From contig NC_092356.1 of NCBI RefSeq assembly GCF_963676685.1, forward strand, positions 50,282,001 to 50,346,000: a stretch of 64,000 nt of DNA, given 5' to 3'. The stretch comes from Mytilus edulis (lineage: Eukaryota). Made by a program: the position numbers and the translations under genes. Shown here piece by piece: positions 1-23,846 of the stretch. The notes below the pieces were generated by a model that made no database searches, was not told where the DNA came from, and saw only the letters and a program-made list of their open reading frames with translations. Within the stretch, counting starts at the first letter, position 1. Every line of letters starts with the position of its first letter.

Positions 1-1271
1 GAGGACATAGCTCCTTTACCAGGAATACCTTGGGGTTCACGAATATTACGAGAATGTCCTTCCTCACTACCGCTGATTACTCCTCTTTGATGATCAAGGG
101 AGCGTCGTATTCTACTCTCCCTTGCAAGTTTATTCATAATTTCACGAGGGGAAGGTTCAGAAAAGTCCTCCCCTACAAAAAGACTGGAAGATTTATTGTA
201 AGAATCCCTACGAGAATCATCCTGACGATTGACTTCTGTAGCACTATTTACCGACTCCGTACCAGAATCAGTATGAACATTGTCTGAATCAGGTTCATCA
301 ATCCTTAATACTTCTACATTGTTTTTAATGTCTTCAGAGTCACACTCTGATGTTTGTTCACTAGAAGTGTCTAAAATTTTAGGTCTATATTCATCTTCTG
401 GTAGTTTTACTTTCAGATCATATTCTTGAGGAATTTCTGGCGGTGGTTTTTGTGGACGAGGCACAGGTTCTACTCTCTGTATGATTTCTGGTCTAGGTTT
501 TGGAGCAGGTATTGGTATATCAGATCGTTTGCTGTCAGGCCGTGGTTTTGGAACTGGTTTCTGATGATAACTCATCTCTGTAAATTGATTAAAATTCATT
601 TCAGGTGGTTCTAAGTCAAAGTCATCTATCATTGCAAGAGGCACCCCATATGTACTATCTTGATGTACAGGAGTAACCTCCCTTCTTTCTGGTGTAACCT
701 CTCTTTTCATTGGAGTTATTTCCCTTTTTGCAGGAGTAATTTCTCTTTTTGCAGGAGTTATATCTCTCTTTGCAGGAATTATTTCTCTTTTCGCAGGAGT
801 AATTTCTCTTCTAACTGGAGTTAACTCCCTTTTGACAGGAGTTACCTCTCTTTTAGGTGGAGTAACTTCCCTTTCTTCAGAGGAGTATGAAGTACCAGAT
901 TTTTCCTTCACAGAACCTCTCATAACTAACTGGTTATAAGCCTCCATTGCTCCAGGAGGAACACTTTCTACTTGATCTGCTTTATTTTTGATCTCCTCGG
1001 AGAAAGTACGTTGACGATCAAGTTTCGGACTACGTTTAAATGAGAATTTGAATCTTGATCCATTCTGTGGTGACCCTGAATCACTTTCTGAATCTGACTG
1101 ATATTTATCAGGTGACGAAGGTTCTTGTGATGATGACATATGAGAACGAGAACTTAATTCATTTGCCATGGCGATAGCATCATCTATCATTTTTTCATCA
1201 GATGCTGACATTGGTTTGACTTTGGCTTGTTTTCGTGGTTCTGGTTTCGGAGGCTCCCTGTTTCGAGGTTC
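1..1271 (-). CDS. Ack-like: Ack-like large C-terminal exon (partial, runs off the window): Pro/Ser-rich disordered tail
   Basis: ccttgcag acceptor; reading frame stays open for >420 codons to position 1 (EPRNREPPKPEPRKQAKVKPMSASDEKMIDDAIAMANEL...KPVPKPRP...). Confidence 0.92.
663..872 (-). repeat. Coding 21-bp tandem repeat x10, encoding R-E-(V/I/L)-T-P-x-(K/R) heptads
   Basis: REVTPPK REVTPVK RELTPVR REITPAK REIIPAK RDITPAK REITPAK REITPMK REVTPER REVTPVH. Confidence 0.95.
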
Positions 1272-1806
1272 CTGCAAGGCAAAAATTGAACATGCATAGT
1301 GATTACATAAATAGATACATGCTGTCTATAATAAAGATATTTTCATATACTCCAGACTTGATTATACTGAAGAAAAGCTGAAGATAATTTCTATAAGAAG
1401 AATATAATAATTACCCTATATCCCTTTTCTCCTAATGAGAATATACAATATTTATATGTGAATGTATATGTAAAAAAAAAAAGGATATTTAATTCAGATT
1501 TATGATTTTTTCAATCTGTCCATTCATCAATTGCTTGTATAGATTGATTGTTCCTTGTACGTCAGAGATTGTAAATTGAGCAACAGCAACATGCAATGCC
1601 ATGCACATAATGATCACAGTTGAATTTTTTTGTGTTTGTTTTTTTAAAGTTTTTTTTTCTTTCTATTTTATATCATAATACACTTTTTTAAAGCAAATTA
1701 AAGAGAAATATATGTTTCATTCCATATAATTTAACAAAATTTTGCAGAGAAGAAAGATTGAACAGCTATAGCTGTTAAGAGGAAGTAGAATTAGAGGCAG
1801 ACATAC

Positions 1807-2007
1807 TAGTCTAGGTGGTTGAACAGGAAGTGGTGGTGGTGGTGACTTTGATCCTCTCCCATTGGTCATCAGTTTAGGAGGCGATTCATGTTGAGGTGTT
1901 GTAGTTGCTGATGAATCATTTGAAGATGAGTTTGCCAACTTTGCCTCTTTGTCGTTTATTGCTTTCAATACTTCATCCATAAATGAAGGTCCGAAATCAA
2001 AAGAACT
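1807..2007 (-). CDS. Ack-like: Ack-like exon: SSFDFGPSFMDEVLKAI...SPPPPLPVQPPRL
   Basis: ttttacag / gtatgt, 201 nt, phase 0-0; DFGPSFMDEV resembles the DLGPSxxDEV segment found downstream of CRIB in CDC42EP/PR2-type proteins; proline-rich. Confidence 0.88.
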
Positions 2008-2705
2008 CTGTAAAATGTCAAGTTTTATAATTAAATATCAATAAAAAAAAAGATATGGTAAATATACAGAAATGACATGTCAGACGGCAATCTTACAACA
2101 ACAAAAAAACAACAAACAAAAACATGTAGAGATCAGTGAAAGTTATTTAATAATAGACTATGCTTGCTATGATATGGACAAATTATGAATAAATGTCAAT
2201 ACATTTAATGATTTGCATTTTTTTTTTAAATCAAAATCGCAATATTTTTCTCAAGAACAAAAATTTAATTGTGTTTTATTTTATAACTAATGGTCTTGAA
2301 TCAGGGAAGACTTGTGCCCACGTAAAACTGATTTTAACAGTTAAACACCCATCATACGTTTTACCTGTCCCTAGTCAGGTTATCTGTTTTAAGTTGTAGT
2401 CTTTGTATTTAACTTTTTGGAGGAATCTGTATTGTCGGTTTATGTGATTTTTTATTTCATTATCTAATATTTTTGGTAATGTCTATTATAGTTTTTTTTG
2501 ACATTATCTAATTTATCTTTTATTAATTACAGTGTATTCTGTTTATCCATCACACAAGAGGACCAGAAAAAAAGTTGGATTAAGCAGGGTATTGGAATAC
2601 TCAGGTTTTTTTCTGCAACAATAGGCATATTTTGGGATAGCCCTAAGATGTTATGAATCATAGACTGTTAGTACAAACGTTTATATATGATTTATTTTTT
2701 CATAC

Positions 2706-2929
2706 CGACATGTCAGGCATTTTGAAGTCAGCAAATATAGAATCATCATCTATATCTTGATACTGGAAATCTCCACTATCAACCTCGTCTGTCCTTGTTA
2801 CATATTGACTGTCTATAGATTCCTGACTTATCCAGGAGTGACCATTAGTACCCAGAGATCCATTCATATTATGTCCATTTTCATCTCTATTAAGACTCAC
2901 AGTTGATATCCGACTTTCACCTTCTTTCC
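2706..2929 (-). CDS. Ack-like: Ack-like exon: post-CRIB linker (GKEGESRISTVS...DDDSIFADFKMPDMS)
   Basis: tcttccag / gtatga, 224 nt, phase 1-0, open frame. Confidence 0.85.
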
Positions 2930-3442
2930 CTGGAAGATAGATCATAATCATCATTACTTACTATAATTGTAATTACTTCTTTCCTTTCAATAATCTATCC
3001 AGGTTGTATTTTCTATTTTTGAACATCCATAAACTATATGGCCCTGTATTAACATGATTTTTTCATAGCATTTTCAAATTAACATATTTTAAGATGGATG
3101 TCTTTTTATCCTAAGCATGGAATTAGATCACCATTAATTTCTTTCCATAAATTAAATACAAAAATTTAAAAGTAAATGTTTCTGTTTTAGGGTCTTGATG
3201 CTATGCAGATATATTTACAACAAAGGCTTATTTTCATTGTTGAAAGCTATACTGTGACCTATATTTGTTGACTTTAATGTCAATTTGGTCTCTGATGGAG
3301 AGTGGTCTCATTGGCAATAATAGCTCATCTTCTTATTTTTACATTATAATATTGTAGTTTTTTCTGCATATTACAAAATGTATAATAAAATATATCATAA
3401 TGAAATATCTTTTATATGATTTTGCAAAATCTAAATACCAAC

Positions 3443-3607
3443 CTGTACTAGCAACTTTGACTGGCAGTTTGTCGTAATTATCACCAATGAAACCAACATC
3501 ACCGAAAATAGCACCATCGTAACCAATATGCCCTGTGTGACGAAGGTCATTCTGTGGACCACTGATCATCTCAGCATTGAACCGCCTTAATGACTTCCTG
3601 TTTGATT
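3443..3607 (-). CDS. Ack-like: Ack-like exon: CRIB (Cdc42/Rac-binding) motif (ESNRKSLRRFNAEMISGPQNDLRHTGHIGYDG...)
   Basis: ttattgcag / CAG|gttggt, 165 nt, phase 1-1; ISxP...xHxxHxG CRIB consensus. Confidence 0.93.
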
Positions 3608-5047
3608 CTGCAATAAATAAATAATAATTTTAATATATTATGGAGATTTTTTTATTTAATGTTTGAAGTCAAGTTCCTGAAAAGTAAAATGTAAACAGAA
3701 ACAGAAATTGCTAAAAATGGAAAATAAAATTTTATATCAAGATTATCCAATGACATTTTTCAACAGAAATTGACGAAACTGATTAATAAAATTATGTTTC
3801 GAAATATTTCCTTTTACATATATAGAGAATAAAAAATAATTCTTATATTAGTTTTAAAACTGATTAAATCATGTGTAAGCGTTGACTGTGTCATTGCATA
3901 TTTCTGTGTATTATTTAAGCATGTGGCCATTCCCATACAATGGAAGCAATATCTGTGGTACAATATATACCTTTAAACCTGTGTCATTTAACTATACTTG
4001 TGTTTCATATTTATGTAAATATCAAATAAAATATATGAGCTTTGACAATCTATAACATATGACAATTTCCTTTGAAAAAAATTTGACTTGGTATGAAAGC
4101 CCTCTGGTCAAAATTTATAAGAACAGAATTTACAATGATACAGGAGTATCTTTTATGATGAACAGTAATATCTGTCTAAATTAACTGTATCCCTCAGGAC
4201 TGTGTTTGGCATAGACACTAGTGTCCACAGTTTACTGGTTTAATTACTACAGAATGTTCTTATTACAAGAGATCAGATGGTTTTAATCAGTTAGTTTTCA
4301 CTGTTAAAATATTTCTCTAAAATAAATTCTTAATAATTGACATCTTTTATAAAACCCTGAACCTGGAAGGAACCTGTTAGTTTGGAAAAGGTCAAGGATC
4401 AGATATAGGGTTCACTCCATTCTAATGTAATTAGTAGAACAGCATGAAGCTTATTTTAGCTCACTTGAATTAATTATAATCAGTTGCAGTTAGCATAAAG
4501 CTTTTTCCTTATTTATTTTTAAGGTTTCAAATTTCACATTTGGATATGATTCCACTGCTTTGTTGTTTAAAATCGCGAAATTTTACACCCTAAAAAATAA
4601 CTCGCTATACGGTATAAATTTAGTGAATGTGACATCCATTTTTTAATAAACTCAAGACAGAACAAATTTTGTTTTAGGGGCCAGTTGAAGCCAGCCTGTG
4701 GCTGTGGGATTTTCTTGCTATATTGAATACCAATTGGTGGCCCTTGGTTGTTTTCTGCCCTTTGGTCAGGTTATTTCATGTGACTTAATTTCTATCTAAA
4801 AAAGCCCATGCCCCACAGACAGATGATCTATTTTGGAGCTGAGACCCAGTTGTCAAAATTATGGTCCATTCTATCTAAGTATCTAATTAAGAGATCATGC
4901 TGCTCCAACTTGTTGAGGATCTGATTAATGACCTTATTTTAAGTGATATTCTAATTTTTTGGCATTATGTGATAAGTCATAAGCTGTTGTCAATATTTTG
5001 TTATAGAAGCCACACTACACATCTATTTGTCCCTTCTCCAATCTTAC

Positions 5048-5092
5048 CTTTCTTACCACCCTTTTTGGGGGATTTTTCTTTCTTGTCTGATT
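5048..5092 (-). CDS. Ack-like: Ack-like microexon F (ESDKKEKSPKKGGKK)
   Basis: atttatag / AAG|gtaaga, 45 nt, phase 1-1; a second in-frame gtaaga donor lies 9 nt inside. Confidence 0.7.
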
Positions 5093-6219
5093 CTATAAAT
5101 AGCATAACCAATCAAATTGTAAAAATAAAGATTTAGGCATAATTGGGGTCTATTGTAGCAAATAGGAGTTAAATCAAAATAAGATTATTCACTACTAAGC
5201 ATCTAGCAAACATTTTTTTTTTAAAATACAATAAAAAGTAAAATCTTTTATCTTTTATTCAAGAATTAATTGTAATTGTAATATTCATTCCACATTTTTG
5301 CATGTCTAACATTTTTTTATCATTAAAAATTTGCAATTCTTTAAAATGATTGTTTTCTTGTTTGCATTTTGGAAACTTGTAGTAAATGTCTGTAGAATTT
5401 AACTCCTCTATTTAAAATATATTCAATGTCTAAGTATGTAGAATACTAAACTACCTATAATACTGTATTTATAAAAATGTAAAATTTAGGACTCGGCATG
5501 CTGGCATAGTTTCATTATATGACTGACAGTGGCTCTCTGCCAGCATGCAAAATGTGCTCTTGTGCTGAAATAAATGCTATTATGAAATGCATATACATCA
5601 AGCAATGATATGATTCTATTCTACAGTATAAATTGTAAGACCCTAAATTCCCAGCTTATAAAAAGAAGAGAAGAAAACTTCTAAATACAGTATAAGAAAA
5701 TCAGAATAAAATGAAGCATATCTAGATAGTAGTATTCCTTTAATCTAACTACCTAACCTAAATGTTTAAAAAATTTGGCTTGCAAAAAAAACAAAAAAAA
5801 CAAATTGGTAATAAATGCAAGAAATAATAAAATCCAATATTAGTGTTATAAAAGAAACAATTGAATGTAAAAGAGTAAAAAAATATTAATGTAAATAAAG
5901 ATGATAGGCAAAAATGTTCATAAAAATTACCCAAAATTTTTATTATAAATCTCTTAAAAAAATTCCACAGCATGAAAGCAAAATTGAGTAAAATCAAAGG
6001 ACAGGTACACTGATGATTTTGATGATTTTATTGAGTGATCTATGTCATCGTCTAAGTGATAGTAAGTCCTTGACTAATATTTTAGACTCATGTCTGGGTT
6101 CAACTTGAGGAAGTTCCAATTTGTTATCAGTATTTTTTGAAGATACTCATAGCAGTTTGTGGATAAAAGCATGATTATGATGTGCAACATTTTCTAGCAT
6201 TTTTGTTCTTTTTTCTTAC

Positions 6220-6276
6220 CTTTCCTTACAAGTTTGACCATAGGTTGGTCTGAGTCAGCTTTTTCTTTTTTAGAGT
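6220..6276 (-). CDS. Ack-like: Ack-like microexon E (DSKKEKADSDQPMVKLVRK)
   Basis: tttcatgtag / AAG|gtaaga, 57 nt, phase 1-1. Confidence 0.82.
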
Positions 6277-6682
6277 CTACATGAAAAATTTACTATTTAT
6301 TTGGGGTTTCCAAATGGAAATTAAACCAATTTTGTTAATAGATAATGATAAGAAATCAAATATACTTGTTCACAAATATTTAAGTGTAAAATTTCATTAA
6401 TCTGTAAGACATTTAAAAAAATTATTATAACAATTTAGACAAAATTTTCTAGTAAAAGAAAGATAACTCTATTATGAAAAGGGTTATAAAAAACAGGTGC
6501 ATTGTATTTTTGGAAGTTTTTAATGTGTATCTTAATCCTCTCTTAAATGGAGCTCTTCCCCTAAAACCATAATTATCATTTAAAAAAAATTTCCATTTTC
6601 ATTTGAATTGTGTTTTAAGTATGGCAAGCCGGGATAAAAGCAAGATAATGATTTGCAACATTTCCGAGCGGCTTTTTCTTAC

Positions 6683-6736
6683 CTTTTCTTGAAAGTTTGA
6701 CTTTAGGTGTGTCCAATTCTTTTTCCTTTTTAGAGT
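6683..6736 (-). CDS. Ack-like: Ack-like microexon D (DSKKEKELDTPKVKLSRK)
   Basis: tttcatatag / AAG|gtaaga, 54 nt, phase 1-1. Confidence 0.82.
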
Positions 6737-7007
6737 CTATATGAAATAAGGATATTTTGTTCTTCACTTTTGGACTGATATTTTTAATAACCATTCACAC
6801 AAAAAACCATGAATTTACCAAATTTTAATCATTGAAAAATAAGTTAATTTCTATATTCTTTCTTTGTTATATTCAATACAAAAAACTATAGTTTTTGATT
6901 TTTGTTGATTTAAAGTTCACTTCAAAAATGTTAAACATTGAAAAACGTGAAATCAAAGTTAAGGCTAATATATATTACTTTGTGAAAAGTTGTGTGTGAG
7001 AGCTTAC

Positions 7008-7064
7008 CTTTTCGACTGAGTTTAATTTTGGGTGTGTTTGATTCCTGGTTTTCTCTTTTAGAGT
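7008..7064 (-). CDS. Ack-like: Ack-like microexon C (DSKRENQESNTPKIKLSRK)
   Basis: gttttcatag / AAG|gtaagc, 57 nt, phase 1-1. Confidence 0.82.
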
Positions 7065-7776
7065 CTATGAAAACAAAGGAGTGCAAATTCACACAAAAGA
7101 AACAATACTTTACAAACTAATATTTAATCTTGCTAATAAAAGCTCCAACACTCTTGATTTTGATATTAAGTTCTCTTCTGATAATACATTAGAAAAAGCA
7201 ATATATAATATGGAATCCAATCCATAATTTTAGGGTAATCCTCAAATATAGAAAAGTCTGTTTCACTGATTATCTTTATTGTTAGCAATATTTTATTAAA
7301 AAGGCATAGAAAATGTTGGATTATCTCTTAAAAACTCCAATTACAATGACCATAAAAGTGGTCATGTTCCCAGCCAATGATCAAAATCGGGTCAGATTAT
7401 TTCATGAGCCAAAAAATATCCAAAACTAATGAATTCAAATTTTTACAGATCCAATGACTTTACTCTATAGAAAATTTATAAATTTTCCTTTTACAATTTT
7501 GATTACAAGCAATGTTTTTTTAATAGCTTCAATAACTATCTGAGCTCCAATAACTGTCTGACCAGATTTTATCACTGGCATGTGAATATTCTGTTATTTA
7601 CGAATCTTTCTTATACATTATCTCTGGCATCCAGTCTAATACTTTCCCGTAGGATTTTAAAAACAAGCAAATTAACAAGCAGGAATTAAATTAAAAACAG
7701 ACGACAGAGGATATAATTAATGCTGAGACCTTTTCTACCCGTTAGCTTGTTAGGAGAGAAAGAGTGTCGATCTTAC

Positions 7777-7833
7777 CTTTACGACTTAGTCGTATATTAG
7801 AGAAGAATGAACTTCCACTCTCTCTTTTAGATT
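7777..7833 (-). CDS. Ack-like: Ack-like microexon B (ESKRESGSSFFSNIRLSRK)
   Basis: tttctaatag / AAG|gtaaga, 57 nt, phase 1-1. Confidence 0.8.
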
Positions 7834-8411
7834 CTATTAGAAATAACGGGAAATAAAATATTTTTATTCATCTGATTTCAAAATTGTAATGAAAAGTTAC
7901 TGAACCCATAAAAATGAAATTTTCTAAAATTCTTGTACATTAATTTTGATTAATTACTTGCATATTCTTATTCAAAACAAATAACAATATTTGAAATAGT
8001 TAAAAAATATTTTACATTAATTCTGAAAATCATCTACTTTTATATACTGATTCAAATCAAATAATAAAATTTGAATTAAACTGTACAATGTGTTACATGA
8101 AACTAAAAAGACCTTTGCTGCATTTAGCATTACATTGGTTTATTTATCACAATATTTGAGATATATTTTAGATTCCATATTACAAAAAAATGTTTAAACA
8201 ACTAAAATCATCACTATGTATACATCTATATAAAAGAAAGAACAGAATTTAAGCAAGAAAAGACCACCCAACTATTTTTGACAATATTTTCCGAAGTGAT
8301 TTTGAATTGCATTTAGTAGTTACATAAAAAGCTGACAAGGTCGATGACAAGGTCAATGACAAGGTCGTAGACAAGCGAGAAAGTAAAGATTTGTTAGACA
8401 TAGAGGCTTAC

Positions 8412-8459
8412 CTTTACGTGATAGTTTTATTTTTGCATCACCATTTTCCCGTTTTGATT
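8412..8459 (-). CDS. Ack-like: Ack-like microexon A (ESKRENGDAKIKLSRK)
   Basis: ctttttgttag / AAG|gtaagc, 48 nt, phase 1-1, open frame, paralogous to neighbouring microexons. Confidence 0.8.
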
Positions 8460-9231
8460 CTAACAAAAAGTTTATACATGTCAATTATACTAACTACCCA
8501 CACATAATAATTAATGGTTTAATTTACAACATATAAGAATAATCTCGGCGAAAACTCTGTATTATTATACAACATAATTCTATTAAACTCTGTAAACTAC
8601 ATGCTGTAGTTCTATGACCAAGACGAAAATTTATAGTCCAACTGGGGCATATGAAGTATCCAGATGTTTATATAAGTAAAAGTTATAGCTGAATCACCTA
8701 TTTCTAGTGAAGTTTTATCCCTACTTTTTTCATAATTCTGACTTATATCTTGGTCAGTTCTAAAATTTGTTTCTTCTTGTTCGAGTCCAGTCTATAAGTA
8801 AAAGTCCTGGTTCATACCTAGTTGATCTAATCCATTAAACTAATACACATAACAATATCTCTAGTTCAAAATTATAAATCAATGAAAATACATTTCCAAA
8901 CACACATGCAAAAATGTCTATTTCTGGGTTATGATGGAACCATGTAATTTAAAAAATACTTTTATCAATTGATATAAAATATTTTAAAGGCAAAAAATGA
9001 ATATCTTTTTCACTTGTTTTTTTACTTCATATTGAAAATTTGTAGAACCAGCTGTAATTTTAAATTCCAATGTAACCAAATTCATAAATTCATAAAAAAA
9101 AACCAACATTCCTTGTATCAATGACTACTGTAAACATTGAAAATCAAAGGTCAAATGTTACCCCCTGATGACAACATCAATGCCATGTTACTATAGTAAT
9201 GCAGTAACCTCCTGACCCCTGTACAACTCAC

Positions 9232-9371
9232 CTTTTCTACTGATACTTTTAGACACACTAGGACTATTCTTGTGTTCAATTATTGGCATAACATTAGCTG
9301 GATCAAAATATCCACATTTACCATTCCCAAGAACACCCTTCCAGAATCCTGACTTCGGACAATCTTCAGGG
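9232..9371 (-). CDS. Ack-like: Ack-like exon: SH3 C-terminal half (PEDCPKSGFWKGVLGNGKCGYFDPANV...SKSISRK)
   Basis: ttttcag / gtgag, 140 nt, phase 2-1; WKG and G.F...V SH3 motifs. Confidence 0.92.
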
Positions 9372-10021: not shown

Positions 10022-10128
10022 TTTTTATCTAATACATATATGACATCATATGATTTATAATACAGGAAGTCTTTAGGTACAACCACTTCTGGGAAATCTT
10101 TCATAGCTTTAACTTGGGTAGGTCTCAT
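10022..10128 (-). CDS. Ack-like: Ack-like exon: SH3 N-terminal half (MRPTQVKAMKDFPE...FLYYKSYDVIYVLDK)
   Basis: ttacag / gtaag, 107 nt, phase 0-2; VKAxxDF and L.Y...DVI.VL SH3 strands. Confidence 0.9.
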
Positions 10129-10423
10129 CTGTAATATAATCCAGAACTCATAAAATTTTCAATGCTGTGGATTCATTATTATTTTTTGGATACCAATTTT
10201 TTCGTGGATTTCATGGGTACAGGGGGACCATGAATTTAAATGTTCAACAAAATACAAATTGTCTTCAGAACAGTATGCAGACTTTGTCAAAACCACGAAA
10301 TCAAATATCCATGAATATGCAAGTTTCCATCAATCCACAAAAAATTGGTACCCACAAATATAATAAAGTAATCTCAACAATTTTTCCCTGGACATATCTG
10401 GAAGATCTGTACTTTGTGTCTTT

Positions 10424-10681
10424 TACAGCTAATTTCCTTATGCATGTAGAATAAGACTTTGGTAAGCTTGCTTGCTTGCTTTGTTTGTATATTGTACAAT
10501 TGTAATTGGGATAACGTTCTATCAAATTTAAATATAATACATGTATATACAGGTTTAACTATGCCTATTTATATTGCTTGCAGATTTCAATCTTAATTAC
10601 AATGCTTCATCTAAAGTTTATAAAAACAAAGCAAGTAAGCCAACAAAGTCTTACTCTACAACCATTAGGAAATTAGCTCTA
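10424..10681. mobile_element. MITE-like element with ~50-bp imperfect TIRs; second copy at ~46300-46523
   Basis: tacagctaatttccttatgcatgtag... / ...ctacaaccattaggaaattagctcta; homologous copy inside the CACTA element. Confidence 0.65.
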
Positions 10682-11369
10682 ATAGTGTTGTTGTGCTTTA
10701 TATTCAGCTGATAAGTTAAATCCTTTTTCACAGATTTTTATAGTCTTTATGTTGTGCAGTTACACTACCGTCAAAATCTGGGGGAGGGTTGAGCACCTGC
10801 AAACATGTTTAACCCCACCACATTATGTATGTGCCTGTCCCAGGTTGGGAGCCTGTCAAGCAGTGTTTGTCATTTGTTGCTGTGTGTATCATTTGTTTTT
10901 CGTTTATTGTTTTGTACATAAATCAGTAAGTTGGCCATTAGCTTACTCGTTTGAGTTTTACATTAGCCATTTCAAGGCCTTTATAGCTTGCTATGCTGTA
11001 TGTGTTTTATTTTTATTTGTTAAAATCCGTCCAATGGCCTATAGTTGCTAACTTCTACATCAATTGTTCTCTTGAGAAGAGTTGTCTTATTGGCCAACAT
11101 ACTACATCTTATTTCTATCCTTGCAATATGGTATGAAATATTTAATAGGAAACAAAGGATTGAGGAACATAAATTAGTATATAGTGGAATAACAGGAGCC
11201 AACATTAGGCCAAACAAAAAAGTAATTGTGTTTACTGTTACATGCAGAAAAAAATAGGGTAGGCAGGTAGGTAGGGAATTTTTTGAATTTTTAATAATTT
11301 TTAATAATTTTTTTAAGTCTATTGGAGCAACATTGTGACTTCAACAATTGTTAATCAAAAAAGGTAAAT

Positions 11370-11657
11370 ACAAGAATGTGTCCCCAGTACAAGGATGCCT
11401 CAATCGTGCTATCATTTTCTATGTTCAGTGGACTGTGAAATTGAGGTAAAAACTCTAATTTGGCATTAAAATTAGAAAGATCATATCATAGGGAACATGT
11501 GTACTGAGTGTTAAGTTGATCGGACTTCAACTTCATAAAAAACTACATTGACCAAAAAACTTTAACCTGAAGCGGGACAGACAGATGGAACAAACGAACG
11601 GACATACAGACCAGAAATCATAATGCCCCTATACTATCGTAGGTGGGGCATAAAAAA
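11370..11657 (-). mobile_element. Non-autonomous Helentron/DINE-like (HINE) element, nested in a small TIR element (~11208-11722)
   Basis: Subterminal hairpin gcccc..tac tatc gta..ggggc next to an A/T run, plus an internal gaca/gaac microsatellite; outer ends ggccaaacaaaaaagta / tactttttttgtttggtt. Confidence 0.6.
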
Positions 11658-11737
11658 CTTTAGGGTAGTTAATACAAATAAGAGTAGGTAGGGGTATAGT
11701 AAACATACTTTTTTTGTTTGGTTCTAGCTCTACCTAC

Positions 11738-11887
11738 CTGAGGTAACATTACAAATAATTCACTGAACAATGGACGTCTTTCTGGATCATGTTCCCAACA
11801 TTTGGTCATTATCTGGTAGTATTCTTTAGGACATAAATCTGGTCGCTCTAGTCTTTGGCAGTTTGGTGCATCTATTGATTCTAATAT
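11738..11887 (-). CDS. Ack-like: Ack-like exon: kinase C-lobe end (ILESIDAPNCQRLERPDLCP...KCWEHDPERRPLFSEL)
   Basis: tag acceptor, CAG|gtaggt donor, 150 nt, CW..DP..RP.F motif. Confidence 0.95.
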
Positions 11888-12211
11888 CTATCATAGAAAC
11901 AAGAAAATAAATAAACTACATAGAAATGTGTAAATTTTATCATTTTTGTTGAGGTGTAATAGTAACATGTAATACAACACATAACCCAAATAATTCAGTC
12001 CCACTCTGTCTCTCTCATTTCCTAGGGCCAACTTTCTTCATATAGTAAAAATGGGCCATGAATACTAGATTTTGATTGGTGCTTTCTGTGAGAAAGCAAA
12101 TCAGCTGCCAGCATAGTTTTATTCAGTATTCTAGGGTATTTTAGCCACCATAGAGCAACAGTATGAAATGTATTCATCAAGTACAGTTGAAAATTGTTTA
12201 CTTTGGTTCTA

Positions 12212-12409
<198 letters not shown>

Positions 12410-13205
12410 TTATGTTGAAATATTTCTTTGAACATCTTAACTAAACAACTATCAAAACTCAATTTCTGTTTGGTAATATATTGTAAACAAACAAAATTTT
12501 TCATGACTTTGGCAAAAAGAAAAAACACAAATATAAATGGTTAGTTTAAAGTAGTCAACAGTCATCAAAATTTGTTCATACATTATGTTGGTATTGTAAG
12601 ATATATTTATTGGGGTATTTTAAGGAAATCTGGTACACATTGATATAACATATAAAATGGTTTTTTTTCAAGGATTTTGTAAATATTACCATTATGACAA
12701 TTTTATATTCGAAGTTAGAAAGAAATTAACTGACTAAAGAATGGTAGATGTAATCACAGATTCCATTTTATTGTATTCTATTTTTACATGCCTCAACAAA
12801 ATCTAAAAACATGATGACACCAAAGAATTTCAATTTACCCTTTGTGATATGTCTATTGTAATCTTTGGCTTTAAAGTTTGTTGCTGTATCTCTCATTTTC
12901 TTAATTGTTTTTTGTATTGCTCATAAATGAAGCCATTTAGTTTTCTCATTTGATTTGCTTTACATTTGGCATTTCGAAGCACTTATAGCTTTATACTATG
13001 CTGTAAGGTTTTTGCTCATTGTTGAAAGCTTTAATGATCTATAAGCCTTCTACAGCATTTTTCTCTTATATATCTCCTTATTTTTATATTGACCATCATA
13101 TTACATTTCTTAATGTTGTGAGATATTTATTCTATGCTTATAAAACAAAAGAAAATTAAGATTATCTCCCTTATACCAATGACTATAAATATATATGTAA
13201 CTTAC

Positions 13206-13303
13206 CAAGCTATAGGCAATTTTAGGTTTAGACTAAAATTACTCTGATAGTAATCTTTACCGATACCTAAGGCTCGAGATAATCCAAAGTCACTTATTTT
13301 TAC
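13206..13303 (-). CDS. Ack-like: Ack-like exon: activation loop (VKISDFGLSRALGIGKDYYQSNFSLNLKLPIAW)
   Basis: ctttcag / gtaag, 98 nt, phase 0-2; DFGLSRALG..KDYY..NF..NLKLPIAW matches the PR2/Ack-like subfamily as I recall it, rather than ACK1. Confidence 0.96.
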
Positions 13304-13392
13304 CTGAAAGAAATAGAAATATAAATGTCATAAAGTACATTGATGACAAGTTCATCTGATTGAATAATTCTGCATATGAATTTAACAACATT

Positions 13393-13525
13393 TAAGGAAT
13401 GACTGTAATATTTTTTCTGTCTATGAAGAAATAACATTAAAAATGTGGTGCACACTGAATAACGTGTGCACCACATTTTTTATGTTATTTCAAATAGACA
13501 GAAAAAATATTACAGTCATTTCTTA
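13393..13525. repeat. Long near-perfect palindrome (~62-bp arms, 8-nt loop), probably part of an unclassified element extending to ~13673
   Basis: ...aaaatgtggtgcacac tgaataac gtgtgcaccacatttt... Confidence 0.85.
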
Positions 13526-14482
13526 TAATTTAATTCTAAATTCCATTTTAAACCGTAGAAACCCATGAAAAAACGTTGATGATGTCACGGTCACATGACT
13601 AAATTATGTCTATGGGCTCATAACAAAATAACGTCAGCCAATCAGAAGACGCGTTACATCCAAAATTAAATTATTGTCTTAGATTATGTATCTTTTTTCT
13701 CCGATCTAAATTGATGAGGATTGCAAGTTTTCCTGCAGAAAAATTGGTGGTTCTCTCATGATACTCTAGTTTTTTCAATTATTTAAAACTTGCCGTCATG
13801 AAAGAGCAAAAAGTGCTAAAAGGGGCATAAATAATACAGGGTTTGAAATTAGCAGGAGCCCACTCACCAATGGCCCCTAAAATTTGGTGTGGGCTCCTAA
13901 AGTTTCTGCTTTTCTTTAGAATTATTATATATATTATTGGCTACAAAATTGAATCTGTGGGCTACCACTGCCAAAACCTGAGTGGTTACCAACAATCTTT
14001 ACTTTTAAGTATTACATGTTTTGTAAAATAGCGTCTTTTATAATTTGTTGTATGATTTCTGCGTTTAAAAATGATACCGGTGAGTTGAAAGGTGTGTTTG
14101 TAGAAATACCAAAATGAACTGCTTTTATATATCAGATATGTTAGTAAATTAATGTATAACTGTGTTGAACTGTACAAGGGTTTCATAATCCTTCCTGTTA
14201 AACGGTACTTTTTGCATTTATATCATTGTATATAAGAGTACTTTTCAATATATTCCATGAATACCAAAATATCAATTTTCCAAAATTCAGGCAGTACTTA
14301 TTAGAAGTATAGAATTCTAATAAATGGATTGTATTGACATTCTTGATGATGCAAACCTGATGTTTAATATAAACATGTCAAAATAACCTCATCACATTTC
14401 TCTTCCTAGTGGCAATAAGTAAATAAATTTTTGAATATAAAATCAAGAACTTAATCTTGGAAAATTAAGAGAGTTATCTTAC

Positions 14483-14674
14483 CTTAGATTTACTAAACAC
14501 CAATATATTTCTTGCAGCTAAATCCCTATGAATTAAACGTTTACTTTCTAAATAACTCATTCCATCACAAATTTCTTGAGCAAAATCACAAAGTCTTGGT
14601 AAAGGAAAGTCAGTTCGTAATGATTGTTCTTTTAGGCACTCTAATAATGATCGCATTGGAGCTAGTTCTGTGAC
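14483..14674 (-). CDS. Ack-like: Ack-like exon: hinge and catalytic loop ([15 protein letters not shown]...[16 protein letters not shown])
   Basis: cctacag / gtaag, 192 nt, HRDLAARN tyrosine-kinase signature. Confidence 0.97.
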
Positions 14675-15415
14675 CTGTAGGATATTAAATATAAAACTTA
14701 AATTTCTAGTCATTTGAAGATTTCATTCTTGTTCATGATGTGCTTAAGTTCTATGTTTATTTTAATTTATAGAAATCATTACTAGCCAACACTTTACTGG
14801 AACGTGATTATTGTTTCTTCCTACTATTTAAGATACTTTCATACAATATCAAAGTAACATTATTATCTGCAAAAGATGGTGGTATATGTTTTTCAGCAAT
14901 ACTTTAACAGTTTGTGGCTCAAGTGCATTGTTACTGATTTCTATTGCTGTGGGCAACAAATAGAAATATCTAGCTTAAAACATTTGAATAAAAGGTACTA
15001 TCTTATATAATTTGGTCTCTGGTGAAGAGTTGTCTCATTGGCAATCATACCACATCTTCAATTTTTTATTTTGTGTGTATTTTTTTTCTTCTTAAATTTT
15101 GGTATGTATGTTTATCTTATGTATTTCTGTCATAATTCATCATTCTCAGAGAGAATAGTAATCTCCTGACATATTACATGGATCCAATACTCCTAAACAA
15201 ACTGATTATGACTGCAACATTAACATTCTGCACAACACCATAGGTTTAACAAGTGGTCAGAAGCCAAGGTGGACAAAATTATTCTATACCAATGCTATAA
15301 TGGTAAACTTTCCAACCTTGGTTTAATCATAAGATGGAAGTCAGGGTAGATCCATTCAATACTTAAGCTATCCTCAAGCTTTAAACTGGGTATAAGCACA
15401 TATCTTTGTACCTAC

Positions 15416-15568
15416 CAACATTAAGGAATCGTCTTTATCTAACACAACACCATACATTCTAACAATATTTTCATGGTCAACATTCTGCATAATATTAGCC
15501 TCCTTTAAAAATTCTGTCGTTCCTGTGTGCATCTTTTCTTTTGTAAGGCATTTTATTGCAACTTGGAC
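15416..15568 (-). CDS. Ack-like: Ack-like exon: kinase subdomains II-IV (VQVAIKCL...EFLKEANIMQNVDHENIVRMYGVVLDKDDSLML)
   Basis: tttcag / gtaggt boundaries, 153 nt, VAIK lysine and helix-C Glu. Confidence 0.95.
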
Positions 15569-16714
15569 CTGAAATATATAAAAGTTTTAATAAAAGGACT
15601 GCATTTTAAAAGTTCTCCTCGTGTACATTTTTCATTTTTTCTTCAAAAGCTACAGAGGCTTTTAATTGTAAGTTTCTTTTCTTTTTTTATTGTACTGATG
15701 TCATCAACTCGTATTCTAGTGTGTTTTTATTTCGTTGCTTTAATTGTGTTATCACATCATAGTGTAATGTTTGTAAATGTTGCTAGTTCATCCGGTAACA
15801 GTACCCAAAAAGTCCCTTTATTCTACCTGGACCAATATTATTATTCAGAGTTATTAGTCTTTGCTCTAATGCCACTCCCTTCACAAAGAAGCAGCCAGTG
15901 GCAATTCCAGAACTTTTCATAAGGGGGCCCTGACTGACCTAAAAGGGGGGGGGGGGGGGTGCTACAGTCATGCTTCCTATGACAGCAAATACAAATTCTT
16001 ATCTTTCAAGTTCAAAACAACTATTGAATCACTGAAGGTGAGCATATGAGACCACATTGAGGTTGGACACGATTGAGACAGGGGCAGTGTCCATCACTAC
16101 ACAGCTTTTCATTCATTTTAAAGCATTTTAAATCAATAAACAATAAATATGATATGCATAGCCTTATATAAAATAATTAAATGATCAGGTGACATTTACA
16201 GTTGAGATGAGGAAACATGAGATAACATATTGAATCATTCATTATTCTCTGATGGTAGATGTGTGGTCCCAGCACCAATGGCATTAAATATTTACTCATT
16301 CCACACAAATCCATACACTTCATCTATATTTTCTAATACAAACTTGTTACAGTTCTTTTTCAAGTAGGAAATAACTATTTCATGTCTACTATTCATCTGT
16401 AAAATGAGTTTTTATCTACCATTGAGAATTTAGCATCATCATTATACAAAGGGTGTCTTTGTTAGTAAGTTTATATACCTTATCACATATAACATGCGAT
16501 CATGATGATTCAATGGTAGTTCATACATTCATGTATTTTAAATAGAAAGACTGATCTTTTATAGAATATTTGGTAGAATGTTCTTAGTACCTAAAGTTTT
16601 TATGTGTAATTTTTGTGAATGTTTTTAATGTTTTGATTTATTTTCTACATAACTCTTCTCCGTTCATCATGTATTCTTTTTAATAATATCTCCCCAGTTG
16701 CCAATGCTTCTTAC

Positions 16715-16921
16715 TTTTTCTCCTGTCTCTGTAGTCCATAACCCTTGCTGTACAATACCAAACTCCCCTTCTCCAAGAGTTTTATTGATCTGGATTGAAT
16801 TGGCGGGTATGATTTGTTTACAAGGAGGTCTGATGTAGGATGATGGTCGTGGAGATCTTTGTTCTGGAGGTGAAGGACTCAGTGATCGTCCAATGTCTCC
16901 ACCTGATCGAGTTAAAATTGC
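16715..16921 (-). CDS. Ack-like: Ack-like exon: linker and kinase subdomain I (AILTRSGG...LGEGEFGIVQQGLWTTETGEK)
   Basis: tttttcag acceptor, gtaag donor, 207 nt, phase 0-0, GxGxFG loop. Confidence 0.95.
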
Positions 16922-19900
16922 CTGAAAAATAAATAAAATATTTATAAAACATTGTCACCATGGAGTTTGTATGCTAGGCAATATTTTTTTTCTGTATAGC
17001 CATGGGTCCCAAGTCACTTGTAATGTCAAAGAATACAGGTTGCTGTATTCTTTAAAGACACTATACATTTCATTATCTGCCAATTTATGAAACCAATCCT
17101 ACCTATATTTTTTTGTAGCTTTTCAATAAATCTAGTGTGAAAAAAGACAAATGCAAGTTTTATTGTGAGAATTTTAACATCTAAACAAAACTAGAAGTGC
17201 TAGATATATATGTTAATATACATTAAACATTCAAATAAGTCAGTCTTGTCATTGCAGAAACATTCCAAATCTATACTGCTACTATTCATTTTTCTGTCAT
17301 TCTCTCTATTTACTGAGATAAATATTTATACCCAAGTATAACAAGGCCAAAGAATGATAACAGTCAACAATCTATAATCTAATATATCTGCATACTTATT
17401 TATTATTATTGATCATACAGTATTTTTAAAATGTAGGTAGTGAGACATTTCTTTTCTAGGCACAGGCTGGCAAGAAAAATACTTTGTATTATGACCTCTA
17501 AATTGGAATAAAAAAAGTCACCAACATGATGAAAAACAAAAAATTAGCTTTCCTAAACTTGCATCAAAATTCATCTAGATGTGTTATGGAAGGTTGAAAT
17601 GAATTAAGTTACAATTAACTGCAGATCTGTACCACATGGCATGAAATAAAATACTATAGAAATAACTTGTAGTGCATTGCACAAAACAAATAAAATTTGA
17701 ACATCTGCCGATTGTTGATCAACTGTTTGCCCTCAAGCTAGAAAACTGAAAACAAACAATGAGAGTGGAATATTTTGTTTTCATTTCTTCAAATAAAGTA
17801 TACGAATAAGTAATATCTTATGCATGTCCAGCTTGAAACAGAAAGCAATGAAGATTTAATAGAAGAAGATCCAAAATGAACATAAAATTGGTTGAACATT
17901 TTTTTCATTGTGACCCACAAACACAGAATTTATCACCCAATTCCTTAGGTCTCCATAATTCATCCACAAGATGCTTTTCATCTTTAAACATTTCTGTTTT
18001 CGAAAAAAAATAAAACATTTCAAAAGTATGTATTATATGTAATATTATGTTTTTTTTTAAATGACGAAATGACAAAAAATTTACAATTATTTCCTAAATA
18101 TAACAAATTTATACCTTGTTAAATACATTATTAAACAAAGCAGGAAATTTAACATCCTGTCAAATACAACTTAATGAAGAACAAAAAATATATATACATA
18201 CAGGGATACGATTCTTAAGTGACTGGAAATGCTTCTTCATTGTGTAAAATCCTCAAGAATAATAATTCCTTAACTTATTCATAAAATCACACAAAAATAC
18301 ATCTGTTCTATGGGGTATCTTATCTTTTCAAGACATTCCCTAGAGGATATGTGTATATATCTCAACAAGTTTTAAATTTAATCTACACATGAATCATCAA
18401 AAAAGTATAATTAAAGAGAAATCACAAGGCTTAATTTCCATCATGATATTTAATTTAAGAGATTTTTGTGCAGACATTTAAAATTTATTTGGTATATATT
18501 TAAGGTATATTAAAACAGTTTGATGTCTATTATGTTAACTGTATACTGCATTTGTAAAATACTTCTAATTCTTTATCAAGCCTCAGTTGTTTAAATTGTC
18601 CTGAAGGATGGCTTTGTGTCCTTTGTATGTGTAACATGTAAACACTGAGCTTACAAATAGTTTCAAGCTTATTTTCTCCTTTCGAAGGGTTGGAGCAATT
18701 GTTTAAAACATTAAGATGGTATGCAGAAAACAATAAAAAAAAAAATGCAGAATTCTAAGAGAGTCTCAAGACAGACATTACCAAAAGCAAAAGGTACAGA
18801 AAAAAAGTCCTCATAAAATTAAAATTTGAGCAATGTGAACTCCCCCAAAACCAGGGTGCACCACTTATATGCTCCTACCCCCCCTTTTTTTAAAGGATTA
18901 ATACTTTTGAGTTGGGACATATATTTGGAACCCCTTTTTAAAAACGTCCTCTATTTTATATAGATCTAAAACCAACCTTGATCATCTATGTTAATGATGA
19001 ATTTCACACTTCCCTTCTAATTCAAGTAAATAATAAGAATCATCCTAATCTAATTACTGGTAGACGTTTTACTACTATAATATATAATACAAGAGCCAAT
19101 TATCTACTTATAACTTGTGTAACAAGTACTTACTATATCCATCACATCAATGACCTTGACTTTTAGCCATGTTTTTAAGTTTCCTAATTGGTGTCTTTAG
19201 GACAAGGTAATGGCATGCACCTTAACCTCAGACACTTGAACAAAATGGTAGTTGCAAGTATCTTCTATATAATAATGTTAAAAGAAGATGACCTGTATTT
19301 CAGTTCCGTTAGAACTAATACTGTAAACCAAATCATTTTCGCAGTGAATTTATCACGGGTCTAGTCCTTTTTATTCCACTTCGTCCTGATTTTATATTGT
19401 GATTTTCAAATTTATTTGTTGTAGTTAATTAAGGAAGGATCAAAGTTTTACATATTCATAAAGATTTACAGTTGTATTATTTTTCTACTCTTGAAGCTAC
19501 TTCAGGTTTACAGTAATAGTCAACTTTTACTTTGATTACCTCAGATTGACCTTAAACTTGACCTTGAACTTATAATGTATCTCTGAACTTTGTAGGATCA
19601 AGAAACTAAATCTGTTATTAATAAATCATTCATTCACAACAGCAGGGTTCCAACTCACAACTTATAGAGTTGTTAAGCCAGATATCACTGCAGACTTACT
19701 ACTCAGACAATTTGTCCATGAAGGCCCCTTCAGTATAAGAGTTGCTGTCAAAGACAAAGAGGAGAGACAGCATAAAACACTCATAAAGTCTAGAAAAGAC
19801 AGACATTATATGTACAACTCTGTAAAACAGAAAACTATGACACTGATTGAAAAGGAAGCATTCATTATAATTGTAAGCCTTGAACATTACAACAACCCAG

Positions 19901-20103
19901 ACAGGTCCCAGGGTATTATTTTTTAATGCCATTTTGATATTATCAAGACCAAGGGATACAGCTTTGTACAAGGTAACAGGTTCGAAATATAATTTATAGA
20001 CTTTCATCAAAAAGATTTTTGAAGATACTAAGGGGGTATAGATGTGTAAAAAGATTACAGAATCTTTTCAAGAGTCATCCTGTCTGTGATGCATGCATCT
20101 ACT

Positions 20104-20186
20104 AAAATGGTGGTGGAAAGAAGATTTGCTACCAAAATTATGGTGGAAAGAAGATTTGCTTCCAAAATGGTGGTGGAATAAAGATT
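20104..20186. repeat. 30-bp tandem repeat, ~2.8 copies
   Basis: aaaatggtggtggaaagaagatttgctacc units. Confidence 0.85.
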
Positions 20187-23100
20187 AAGTATAATTGAGA
20201 GATTTGAAGACGGGTCCATTATGATAGTTTAATCCCAACCATCTGGAAGGTTGGAAAGAGGACTTATTTGATGCTAAACAAATCCCTGAAGTTAATTGGC
20301 GTTTTCTAGTTTCCATTGTTATCGTTTGTCCTCCAAAGACCTTTCCTGTCATCTACAGAAACATATGTATGACCTAAATTTTGACCCTCACTAAATCAAA
20401 ATGCTAAATCTAAGTCCAAGCTCTCTTATCTAGTTCTGTTATTACAACAATGAAAATATGAAGATTTATTAAAATTCATTTTTACATCAATATATACCTT
20501 CAAGGACAGATGTTTATCTTAAAAATTGAAATATTGTTGAACAGAAGGCCGTAATAACTAAGCCAAATTCTACTTTCCCTTTACAATCAATTTTAACAAG
20601 AATATCAATAGTCTAAAAATCATAAAATAATTCCTTACCAAAAATTTCATTTTCTTGTTCTCACTACTTTTACTCATAACTGTTCCAAAAGGATTGACAC
20701 GCTGTTGTTAATTTTATGATAATGCGATGACTTCATTCTCCCATAACAAATACTTCATACAAGGTGTGACATCATTTCCCTTGACAAGGTGTATTAAAAA
20801 ACGTAAATGTACGACCACAAAATGTGGAGAATTATAGTGATAGTAGTATACATGTAGTATGTGGTTAGTATGTGGTCAGACACTGTCCTAAATGAAGGTA
20901 CATGTGAAAGGTCATCTTTAATTTTCTCACAATATAAATAGATCTGAAATATCAGTTTATTGATTTGGATCGTGAGTCATATTCAACAAGTAACTTCTTA
21001 CGATCTGCAGACTATCAGTTTTATCAGGTTTTATGCATTTAATCAAGTACTCTGCATGCCTCGTGCATTGTGCATCAGCTTGCAAAAATTCTAGAATGAC
21101 AAGTCGAGTTGCAACTCTATTTTTTTTTAAATGTTTTAAAATAGTACAAATTATATCAGATTTGATTAAATTTTGTTTTGCTATTTTTGAATGTTTGAAT
21201 ACAATGACATGATAAAAACTTTTTATTTTTGTCATGACGAAAACTTTTGAGATTACCCCTAAACAATAAGACAAGGTCAAAATCTATTTGAACGAATTTA
21301 AAAGAAAGTGTTAACGGAAATGAATACCCAAAACTAATTGATTTTCAAAAATTACTCTTTAATTTTAATTGACAAAAAAGTCTGAGACCATAATTTTCCA
21401 ATTTTTTAACACATCATGTTTTTAAATTTTGACTTAAATTACGTTAATTTAATTATTTTTTAATCCATAGAACATATAATTACCAAACTAGGTAAGAAAA
21501 AGTGTATGTTATTATTTGTGAATATAATTGATTGGTTTCAAGTGTAAGGTAGAATTTTAAATGAAGTATTGCTCCAATTCCCTTTGATCTTCATGATGAA
21601 ATACCTACTGAAAAGAAAATATTTCTATGTTTTCAAACAACTGTAAAAACTTTTCAAATAATTTTAATGGTGTTGAAGTTTTATTTTTAAAGTTTCTTTT
21701 CCAGTGCACATTCTTTAAGTCAATCCAGGGGGTATGACAAACCAAATTTTGTCATACCATATATTTTATGTTGCTCCAGGGTCAAAGAGTGCCATGTCTA
21801 GAGTCCTCAGCATTGTCGCCTTGAAGGGTGGAAAAGTGTCAAATCTTGCATTCAATCTTATACATTTGTATATGCAAAGGGTTCCAACTTGAAAATCTCA
21901 GTTTCCAGGTATCAAATGTTATAAACTTATATCTCTCAAGCAAGCAAGCAATTCTGAAGCGAAAACTAATACATGTAACTGTTATCATGTTATGACTTTG
22001 TCTTTGTTTTCATAGCAATAGTGACAAGAAAACTGCTAGGAAATAAGCCAATACTCGTTCTTTCTTTCACTACTATCTGAATTATCACTTGTAATGAACC
22101 ATGTGATTCAATGGCAGTTTTTACATAGACTTTTGATGTTAATGACAAGACACAAATCAAAGCAAGTAGCAAGAACTCTTTGAAGATTAATTATTTCCAA
22201 CAAAAGCATAAATGGATATCAAATTTAATATGGATGGGATTCAGTTATGATAAATATAGAATAAGAATTACCAAATGAAACAACTACCCATAAAGATTGA
22301 TGGACAAAGATGTCTATTTCAATCCAGTTCAGAGTTGGACATGAAAGGAACAACCATTAAAAAGACTAATGCTTCTACAAATTATTAGATGTTGATCATG
22401 ATTATTTTCCCACTTTTGGTAGAAAAAAACATGCTGGTTTTGTAATGTCTAGCATTTCAGACAAAAGACATTAAAGTTCATAGAATATATAAATTATATC
22501 TACATGTCTGATGAAATTTGATTAACCACTATGTCCACTTTACAGCAATCAGATCTAATTATACCCTAATGGTATTATCAATTAACATAATGGCTAGAAT
22601 ATGATACTCGTTTATCTTATGATTCATTAACATGCAGTTTCACTTATTGTGAAGATGTCATGTGCTTTTTTTTTTAGCTCATGAGCTTTTTGTTTATATA
22701 TAATAATAGAGTGGGGCAGGTCCTATTTTGGGACATTGGGATCAGGTGTTTTTAAAGCTTGGGATTTTGGGATTGACCATTTCTGGATCCGGAATTTCTT
22801 TTTTCGAATTTATGGATGTCAGGATTTAATTTATTTTTAATTTGGGACCTCGGGATTTCATATTTTAAAAACATTTCCAGATCAGGACCCCTCTGACCCA
22901 CTCTCATAATAAGTTTCTAGGAGACTAACAGCTATGCTATAATTGTACATCTTTCCATTATACTATTGAGGTGAACACTATTAAGGGAGAAGAAAGTCAA
23001 AGTATCTATAGAGAACCATCAAAAAGATCAGAGTCAAACGCACCTTGTCATGGGGAGGGTTGAGTGATACAAAAAACTAGTTTAACCCTGCCACATATTA

Positions 23101-23618
23101 AAGTGTCAGTCTCACATCAGGAACATAACAACTGCTGGTCTTTATGTTAAATTCATTTTCAAGACTTTTAGGCGATTAAGTGCTTGACCCCTACATGTTT
23201 GATTTTTTAAACAGCTGGGTTGCTGTCATACCATGCATCTTCTTATATTCATATAGCAACATTCATCATCATCATCCATAAATATGATAATGTTTCAAGA
23301 TGTTAAAAACACAAAATATGTAATTATAAAATAAAAAAGAGGACACCTGGCCAATTTATTGTTTATGTAGTGTGATAATAGTTAAACATTTGGTAAAACT
23401 TGAGGTTAGGTGTAATTTGATTTGAAATCCATGTGCAGTACTTGAAAACTTAATCTACAAATACACCAATATAGAATGACCTCACAAATTATCAGGCTAT
23501 AAGGGACGGGCTATAAAGAGTAAAATGTTGAGGTCATTGGACAAGTAATTCTATTTCACTATTTTTTTTTGTTTTCATATATATATATAAGACATCCCTT
23601 TCTCACAAAGAAACCAGC

Positions 23619-23846
23619 TACTGTGGACTCATTATTATTTTTGGATACCAATGTTTGTGAATATCGTTGGTACAGGTGAGACAAACTTGAATGTTCAATA
23701 ATAAATAACAATTATTCTTTAAGGTTGTATGCACACTTTTACAAAACAACGAAAATCATATGCATGTATCCACAACAGGGTATGTTTTCCTCAATCCACT
23801 AAAATAAGTAATTTAGTATCCACAAAGATAAATGAATCCAAAATAG
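23619..23846. mobile_element. MITE family with tactgtggattcatt TIR; related copies at ~10165-10370 and ~61189-61380
   Basis: Shared termini and shared internal ggataccaatttt..gtggatttc sequence in three copies. Confidence 0.6.

Follow-up and report, generated by a model that had tools for sequence, protein, structure and literature searches.

The question raised by this stretch of Mytilus edulis DNA (the window: 64,000 nucleotides of contig NC_092356.1, NCBI RefSeq assembly GCF_963676685.1, positions 50,282,001 to 50,346,000, numbered here from its first letter) is why a tyrosine kinase gene should carry, in the linker between its SH3 and CRIB-like parts, six short exons whose joined ends repeatedly spell one serine motif. 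The gene is an Ack-like (PR2-type) non-receptor tyrosine kinase on the minus strand, and the six exons (m1-m6) are combinatorial cassettes of symmetric phase that preserve the reading frame and are both included and skipped. At the junctions stands the motif [LI]-x-R-[KR]-[ED]-S-x-[RK], which is split by a phase-1 intron and numbered below from its serine (S0, with L/I at -5 and R at -3). Sequence comparison indicates that a single copy of this motif is ancient, that mussels have multiplied it, and that selection acts on the peptide motif. The reading we prefer, and to which we give about an even chance, is that the cassettes are spliced in combinations, that five of them each add a motif copy and likely a basophilic phosphosite, and that splicing in this way sets the phospho-switchable basic modules beside the CRIB-like motif. 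Evidence on splicing was taken from contigs of four runs (four studies) aligned to window positions 2600-9600, all joints having GT..AG ends. The exons in question are as follows.

9232..9371, minus strand: SH3 exon, constitutive, encoding the second half of SH3 and the start of the linker; its tail supplies I-x-R-K and the G of the split codon, the 5' motif half
8412..8459, minus strand: cassette m1, 48 nucleotides, joined to the SH3 exon in 4/4 runs
7777..7833, minus strand: cassette m2, 57 nucleotides, both included and skipped
7008..7064, minus strand: cassette m3, 57 nucleotides, with m4 as its only downstream partner in RNA
6683..6736, minus strand: cassette m4, 54 nucleotides, joined to m5, m6 or the CRIB exon
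6220..6276, minus strand: cassette m5, 57 nucleotides, found in 1/4 runs and likely a younger duplicate of m4
5048..5092, minus strand: cassette m6, 45 nucleotides, with the serine half only, an S-P-K-K motif, and a tail that has neither L-5 nor R-3
3443..3607, minus strand: CRIB exon, constitutive, with the ancestral 3' half of the motif (E-S-x-R), a basic stretch, and the predicted CRIB-like motif

All of these exons are flanked by AG and GT, with both boundaries in phase 1; the six stop-free, in-frame cassettes (45-57 nucleotides) have lengths that are multiples of 3. Each encodes 15-19 residues with a net charge of +2 to +4 and 2-4 acidic residues. The seven junction hexamers listed in an earlier note on this DNA (ISRKES, LSRKES, LSRKDS three times, LVRKES, and GGKKES) match this anatomy, and the arginine codons of the junction motifs (AGA, CGT, CGT, CGA, AGA, and AGG) include the four that it named (CGT, CGA, AGA, and AGG). 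Its label of microexon does not hold, however, as none of the six cassettes falls at or below 30 nucleotides and two of six at or below 51 (the limits applied, from the source text available to us, being ≤27-30 nucleotides in the strict and ≤51 in the broad sense), and short cassette exon is the fitting term. Scanning 3608-9231 for exons in phase 1 with a length of 21-90 nucleotides and a GTRAG donor gave no further cassettes except shorter variants within m5 and m6. Here, possible in-frame alternative sites lie in m6 (a donor 9 nucleotides upstream and an acceptor 6 nucleotides downstream) and in m5 (an acceptor 27 nucleotides downstream), all of them unused in the contigs. A genome search with the m3-m4 stretch returned no further copies, its matches being itself and m5 only. 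The splicing-factor motifs TGCATG, TGC, TCTT, YCAY, and ACTAAC are not enriched in the array, where the densities of TGCATG and TGC equal those in other introns of the same gene.

That the contigs contain GT..AG joints means that the four runs, no one of which is recorded as RNA, hold spliced transcripts. Eleven distinct joints, covering both co-inclusion and skipping, were found: SH3-m1 in 4/4 runs; m1-m2 and m3-m4 in 3/4; m1-m3, m2-m3, m4-m6, m4-CRIB, m6-CRIB, and m1-CRIB in 2/4; and m4-m5 and m5-CRIB in 1/4. To the m1-CRIB joint can be added one X4 contig that runs from SH3 to CRIB with 48 letters between them. The joints m5-m6 and SH3-CRIB (direct) are absent from the four contig sets, which is no proof of their absence. 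Mutually exclusive use of tandem exons was considered and is ruled out by the joints m1-m2, m2-m3, m3-m4, and m4-m5. Moreover, a 2,770-nucleotide X7 contig reads SH3-m1-CRIB and so has two motif copies, while the X6 joints, when chained, permit six copies, though a single contig with all six was not seen. The variable, in-frame inclusion supposed earlier is thereby borne out, and cassette isoforms are already present in automatic annotations; in fact, 22 mytilid proteins from several species (mostly automatic gene models) represent 14 cassette combinations, among them none and m6 only. The supposition that the exon number gives one to six phosphosites fares less well: five cassettes do add a motif copy, but m6 adds none, and the RNA joints are compatible with 2-6 copies, the one-copy form being found in gene models only, as is the skipping of m1.

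To follow the motif beyond mussels, we aligned the full SH3-CRIB stretch of 34 chosen orthologues, approximately one per genus or lineage, with fragments and repeated isoforms excluded; these rows are mostly from molluscs, with nemerteans, annelids, and a brachiopod, and are not phylogenetically independent. Among them, position -5 is L/I in 32, -3 is R in 33, -2 is K/R in 33, -1 is E/D in 31, S0 is kept in 31, +2 is R/K in all 34, and +4 is S in 29, whereas -4 and +1 vary (the top residue in 13 and 12 rows, respectively). Overall, about 31 of the 34 retain a single copy of the motif. In Lingula, four residues are inserted within the motif. The named oyster, scallop, clam, abalone, snail, octopus, chiton, nemertean, and annelid proteins returned have at most one copy and a short linker, the SH3-CRIB stretch being 50-57 residues long in other molluscs versus 50-156 in mussels, and two genomic loci (L003 and L009) show the same phase-1 intron within the motif. 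The pattern [LI]xR[KR][ED]S is rare, with three matches in 147,827 background residues, two of them the orthologous site and thus one outside site, so that six copies per ~100 residues are not due to chance (though, as duplicates, they are not independent of one another). As a separate observation, four Patella vulgata proteins (P0034 and P0150-P0152) carry five extra residues at this SH3/CRIB junction, still completing L-x-R-K-D-S, which P0153 and P0154 lack; this appears to be an independent alternative event, either a microexon or an alternative acceptor.

The array itself is present in three Mytilus proteins and in a more distant mytilid-like protein, P0083 (82-84% identity overall, five cassettes), and as far as seen it appears young and confined to mussels. 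These four proteins gave 22 junction units, the four m6-CRIB junctions being tallied separately, in which -5 is L/I in 22, -3 is R in 22, S0 is Ser in 21, and +2 is basic in 22, while -4 is taken by six different residues. A 23rd unit (P0083), outside the search pattern, also keeps L, R, and S. Within m1-m5 of the window, the proportion of synonymous differences (pS) at the three motif codons is 0.72 with no residue change at all, and over the exon termini (-7 to +3) pS is 0.76 against a nonsynonymous proportion (pN) of 0.20. The residues L-5, R-3, and S0 are encoded by 3, 4, and 2 codons, respectively, and all lie outside the splice consensus. With synonymous sites saturated and L, R, and S fixed between these cassettes, and with the three residues largely kept across orthologues, splice-donor bias is no sufficient explanation and, as the whole explanation, is ruled out. 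The conservation of these three residues that the earlier note wished to see checked in orthologues is thus found in the 34-row alignment and in the paralogous cassettes alike. Its caveat concerning the terminal AAG is justified to the extent that the donor accounts for the constant AAA-G at the exon ends and fits a K-to-Q change at -2 in P0083, but it touches only the codons at -2 and -1, where the choice of residue is narrower than a donor needs. Likewise, its description of retained termini stands, though the conserved block extends from -7 to +3 and only 5-8 interior residues per cassette diverge.

As to which kinase might read the motif, we scored the junctions with nine of 303 human kinase matrices (PMC9876800, supplementary table 2, values to two decimals), the background being a crude one of 13,360 serines of kinase-like proteins, 774 of them with R-3; with so few matrices and such a background, the ranking is a lead only. 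As such, it suggests CaMKI, PKC, and PKA as the best fits among the nine, and AMPK and MARK as poor ones. Relative to all serines, the junctions with Lys at +1 are in the 99.5-99.9th percentile for CaMK1G, the 98.2-99.7th for PKC delta, and the 97.6-98.4th for PKA. When compared with R-3 serines, the five such junctions reach the 93rd-98th percentile for CaMK1G, 83rd-94th for CaMK1D, 88th-96th for PKC delta, 80th-84th for PKA, 32nd-79th for PKD1, 58th-68th for AMPK, and 49th-65th for MARK1. The junctions have the R-3 and the basic residues after the serine that mark CaMKI/PKC-type motifs, together with the L/I-5 of CaMKI, and the conserved basic +2 points to kinases of this type. They also have R-3 with R/K-2 as for PKA (96-98th percentile among all serines, 71st-84th among those with R-3), for which the K-to-Q change in P0083 lowers the score to the 27th percentile. 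AMPK/MARK-type sites share the hydrophobic -5 and Arg -3 but have a hydrophobic +4, at which Leu is favoured 2.7-fold (AMPK) and 4.9-fold (MARK1) in the matrices (PMC9876800). In 22/22 units, +4 is occupied by N, K, E, or S, and this never-hydrophobic position makes AMPK and MARK the weakest among the nine (35th-68th and 10th-65th percentile, respectively, among R-3 serines), for which reason we rejected them as junction kinases. The basophilic consensus proposed earlier hence holds in that junction serines are among the best-scoring sites of the linker and fit CaMKI and PKA, but not in its AMPK/MARK part, and it had missed the conserved basic +2.

Not all junctions score alike. The m5-m6 junction is weaker with all nine matrices (CaMK1G 72nd and PKC delta 60th percentile among R-3 serines). 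At the m6-CRIB junction of Mytilus the CaMKI/PKD fit is lost and the PKC fit kept, and in P0083, where m6 has an acidic end, six of the nine matrices put it in the 0th percentile among R-3 sites. For PKC alpha and delta, the m6-CRIB serine and a constitutive serine four residues further along still reach the 98.9th-99.8th percentile, with the result that the number of sites is not strictly 1-6. When m6 is included no copy is added, the last intact motif lies 15 residues from the CRIB-like motif, and the CRIB-proximal serine has neither L-5 nor R-3. This cassette likely works differently from m1-m5, uncoupling the CRIB-proximal site.

With regard to structure, an AlphaFold2 model of the six-cassette protein P0059, built from 52 sequences, is confident over the kinase and SH3 and has a predicted local distance difference test (pLDDT) score below 50 over the array (residues 393-519), from which the linker is predicted to be disordered; a single-sequence fold of P0001 (mean pLDDT 34) was unusable. 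In the mechanism that we propose, the junction serine would be a substrate of a CaMKI-, PKC-, or PKA-type kinase, the phosphate would cancel most of the net positive charge of the cassette, and this cancellation may tune membrane or Cdc42 engagement, such that including more cassettes would provide more basic modules for a basophilic kinase to neutralise. A bolder form, in which an ancient intron-straddling site was duplicated into self-completing cassettes and acts as a phosphosite counter, with tissues choosing from one to six charge-cancelling sites and the sixth exon detaching the last from CRIB, is possible but doubtful.

Several observations weigh against the preferred reading. Phosphorylation of the junction serine is a prediction from sequence, and although the oyster Ack-like orthologue is a phosphoprotein, with two other sites in the portion searched of a table of heat-regulated phosphosites (PMC13280272), the junction site is not among the oyster sites listed there. 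This last point is a weak one, as the fully tryptic junction peptide has 3 residues and a blank in tryptic data is thus no refutation. The serine is absent in 3/34 orthologues, is Ala in the genomic loci L006 and L010, and is Leu at the m5-m6 junction of M. coruscus (P0060), while among 40 CRIB-bearing proteins the majority of the more distant Ack-like ones lack the motif, a few distant ones keeping F-x-R-x-[ED]-S. No contig carries more than a few cassettes together, contig depth is no measure of isoform levels, and the runs are without a tissue or stage label. Furthermore, all nine matrices disfavour the conserved acidic -1, so that something other than these kinases may be what actually reads the motif, and the conservation at -7, -6, +1, and +3 goes beyond what a kinase consensus needs. 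This breadth leaves room for a second explanation, namely that the repeated 11-residue unit is a phosphorylation-independent binding or targeting element (a basic-hydrophobic signal for a membrane, a partner, or import) whose valency, along with the SH3-CRIB distance, is tuned by splicing. Besides the conserved block and its acidic residue, the net basic charge of all cassettes and the few relatives with S0 replaced agree with such an element. Nonetheless, we consider it unlikely, given that a serine kept in 31/34 orthologues at a fixed spacing to R-3 and L/I-5, with -4 and +1 variable, is what basophilic kinase sites usually look like.

A third explanation holds that only one site is essential, with the cassettes lengthening the linker and their ends kept so that any exon meeting SH3 or CRIB rebuilds the ancestral motif, the internal copies being by-products. 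The single copy in all other molluscs examined and the direct joining of m1, m4, and m5 to the CRIB exon would suit this. Yet the end of m3 and the starts of m2-m5 are equally conserved, even though no joint of the four runs brings m3 to CRIB or any cassette but m1 to SH3, and m6, which breaks the CRIB-proximal motif, is conserved in the distant mytilid; we judge this explanation to be quite improbable. Finally, that the extra copies are a residue of duplication held by nucleotide constraint (donor AAG and exonic splicing enhancers), with their peptide motif unselected, is very improbable and already largely refuted by the codon evidence given above for L-5, R-3, and S0, despite the AAA before G|GT in seven of seven -2 Lys codons, the donor-compatible K-to-Q change in P0083, and the visible duplication of m4 and m5.

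How the array arose is suggested by the heads of m1-m5 (E/D-S-K-R), which resemble the CRIB exon in other bivalves, and by their tails (L/I-x-R-K), which resemble the SH3 exon. A tandem duplication that took in the ancestral phase-1 intron may have produced a chimeric cassette of head plus tail, and it is this structure that lets any combination of cassettes rebuild whole motifs; later exon duplications would then have lengthened the array, those of m4/m5 being the latest. Only the downstream introns of m4 and m5 align clearly above shuffles (z score 8.9; next highest 4.2), and the introns are too diverged to prove such a head-plus-tail origin, which we infer. Among nine loci from metagenome contigs, none was other mytilid genomic DNA.

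Among known systems, WASP and PAK have a basic region directly before CRIB, belonging to a phospho-regulated polybasic class with a fixed number of sites. The Ack-like/PR2 branch (Drosophila Ack-like and C. elegans ARK-1) shares with the mussel protein the SAM, the tyrosine kinase, an SH3 after the kinase, and a CRIB-like motif (PMC10047419), but the accessible text of this family review mentions no regulated SH3-CRIB linker, cassette array, or such motif. In CaMKII, a variable interdomain linker is likewise assembled from several alternative exons in combinations; however, the portion available does not present its exons as copies of a single motif (PMC9772828), whereas the mussel exons are paralogous and complete the motif only across a junction. 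Tissue-specific disordered cassette exons (Buljan et al., PMC3437557), as covered in the available sections, are similar in bearing motifs and in being conserved at the protein level with synonymous change tolerated, though there the site is inside the exon and either present or absent, and in the mussel it straddles an intron in up to six copies. The Lgl-aPKC multisite switch (PMC12216845, in the text at hand) likewise has several basophilic serines in a disordered, basic stretch, but their number is fixed, unlike the splice-variable mussel sites, whose cassettes also hold acidic residues and for which membrane binding is a proposal of ours. Mutually exclusive tandem exon duplicates, as treated in the accessible part of PMC8373072, are alike in being homologous tandem exons and unlike in that the mussel cassettes are co-included. 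No paper on the mussel array or on junction-built kinase motifs was found in the literature covered, which takes in few subscription journals. The motif appears to be an undescribed short conserved feature of invertebrate Ack-like kinases (molluscs, nemerteans, and annelids), one prone to be overlooked by standard tryptic phosphoproteomics. The mussel isoforms form a natural series in motif number, with which it could readily be tested whether multisite phosphorylation works as a count, and the array is an example of an intron-split motif multiplied with every splice combination left whole.

The assignment of the gene rests on several lines. The protein of exon 3607-3443 is 100% identical to its Mytilus trossulus and 98% to its M. 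californianus counterpart, an 'activated Cdc42 kinase-like' protein, and relatives are annotated as 'activated Cdc42 kinase-like' or 'PR2-like'. Protein P0061 aligns exon by exon to 24287-3 of the window on the minus strand, and Pfam places in it the SAM (SAM_TNK, E value 3.5e-23) and kinase (PK_Tyr_Ser-Thr, E value 5e-88) of the Ack family. The Pfam scan of P0061 gave no match for SH3, a label taken here from the family architecture, and the P0059 model predicts a confident all-beta module where the Ack family has its SH3, C-terminal to the kinase. For PBD/CRIB, the Pfam score of 16.7 bits is under the 21.3 cut-off; the motif agrees with the consensus quoted in PMC10047419, in the part available, at all but Phe, and its I, P, H, G, H, and G are unchanged across 52 relatives, which together make the region next to the cassettes a predicted Cdc42-binding (CRIB-like) motif. 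Searching the sequences of the PDB with this exon (CRIB) gave two matches, both by chance. The remaining coding exons of the gene are as follows.

10024..24287, minus strand: upstream coding exons, with SAM, the tyrosine kinase domain, and the first half of SH3 (from Pfam and the mapping of P0061)
3..2930, minus strand: downstream coding exons, encoding a long disordered C-terminal part that continues past the window edge

Other repeats and candidate sites were noticed along the way. In the SH3 exon, an S-P pair before the motif (~9262-9270, minus strand) is kept in ~31/34 orthologues and is a candidate proline-directed site. The long 3' exon contains a 21-nucleotide tandem repeat (~680-885, minus strand) encoding about ten heptads with T-P-x-K/R, a putative second multisite array of the kinase; T-P-x-K/R is a CDK-type consensus. 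In the C-terminal region of Ostrea edulis P0020 (residues ~837-891), there are four R-Q-D-S repeats, a serine repeat of basophilic type. Elsewhere in the window, 56990-58620 holds two blocks of a ~45-nucleotide tandem repeat with long minus-strand open frames, probably a minisatellite.

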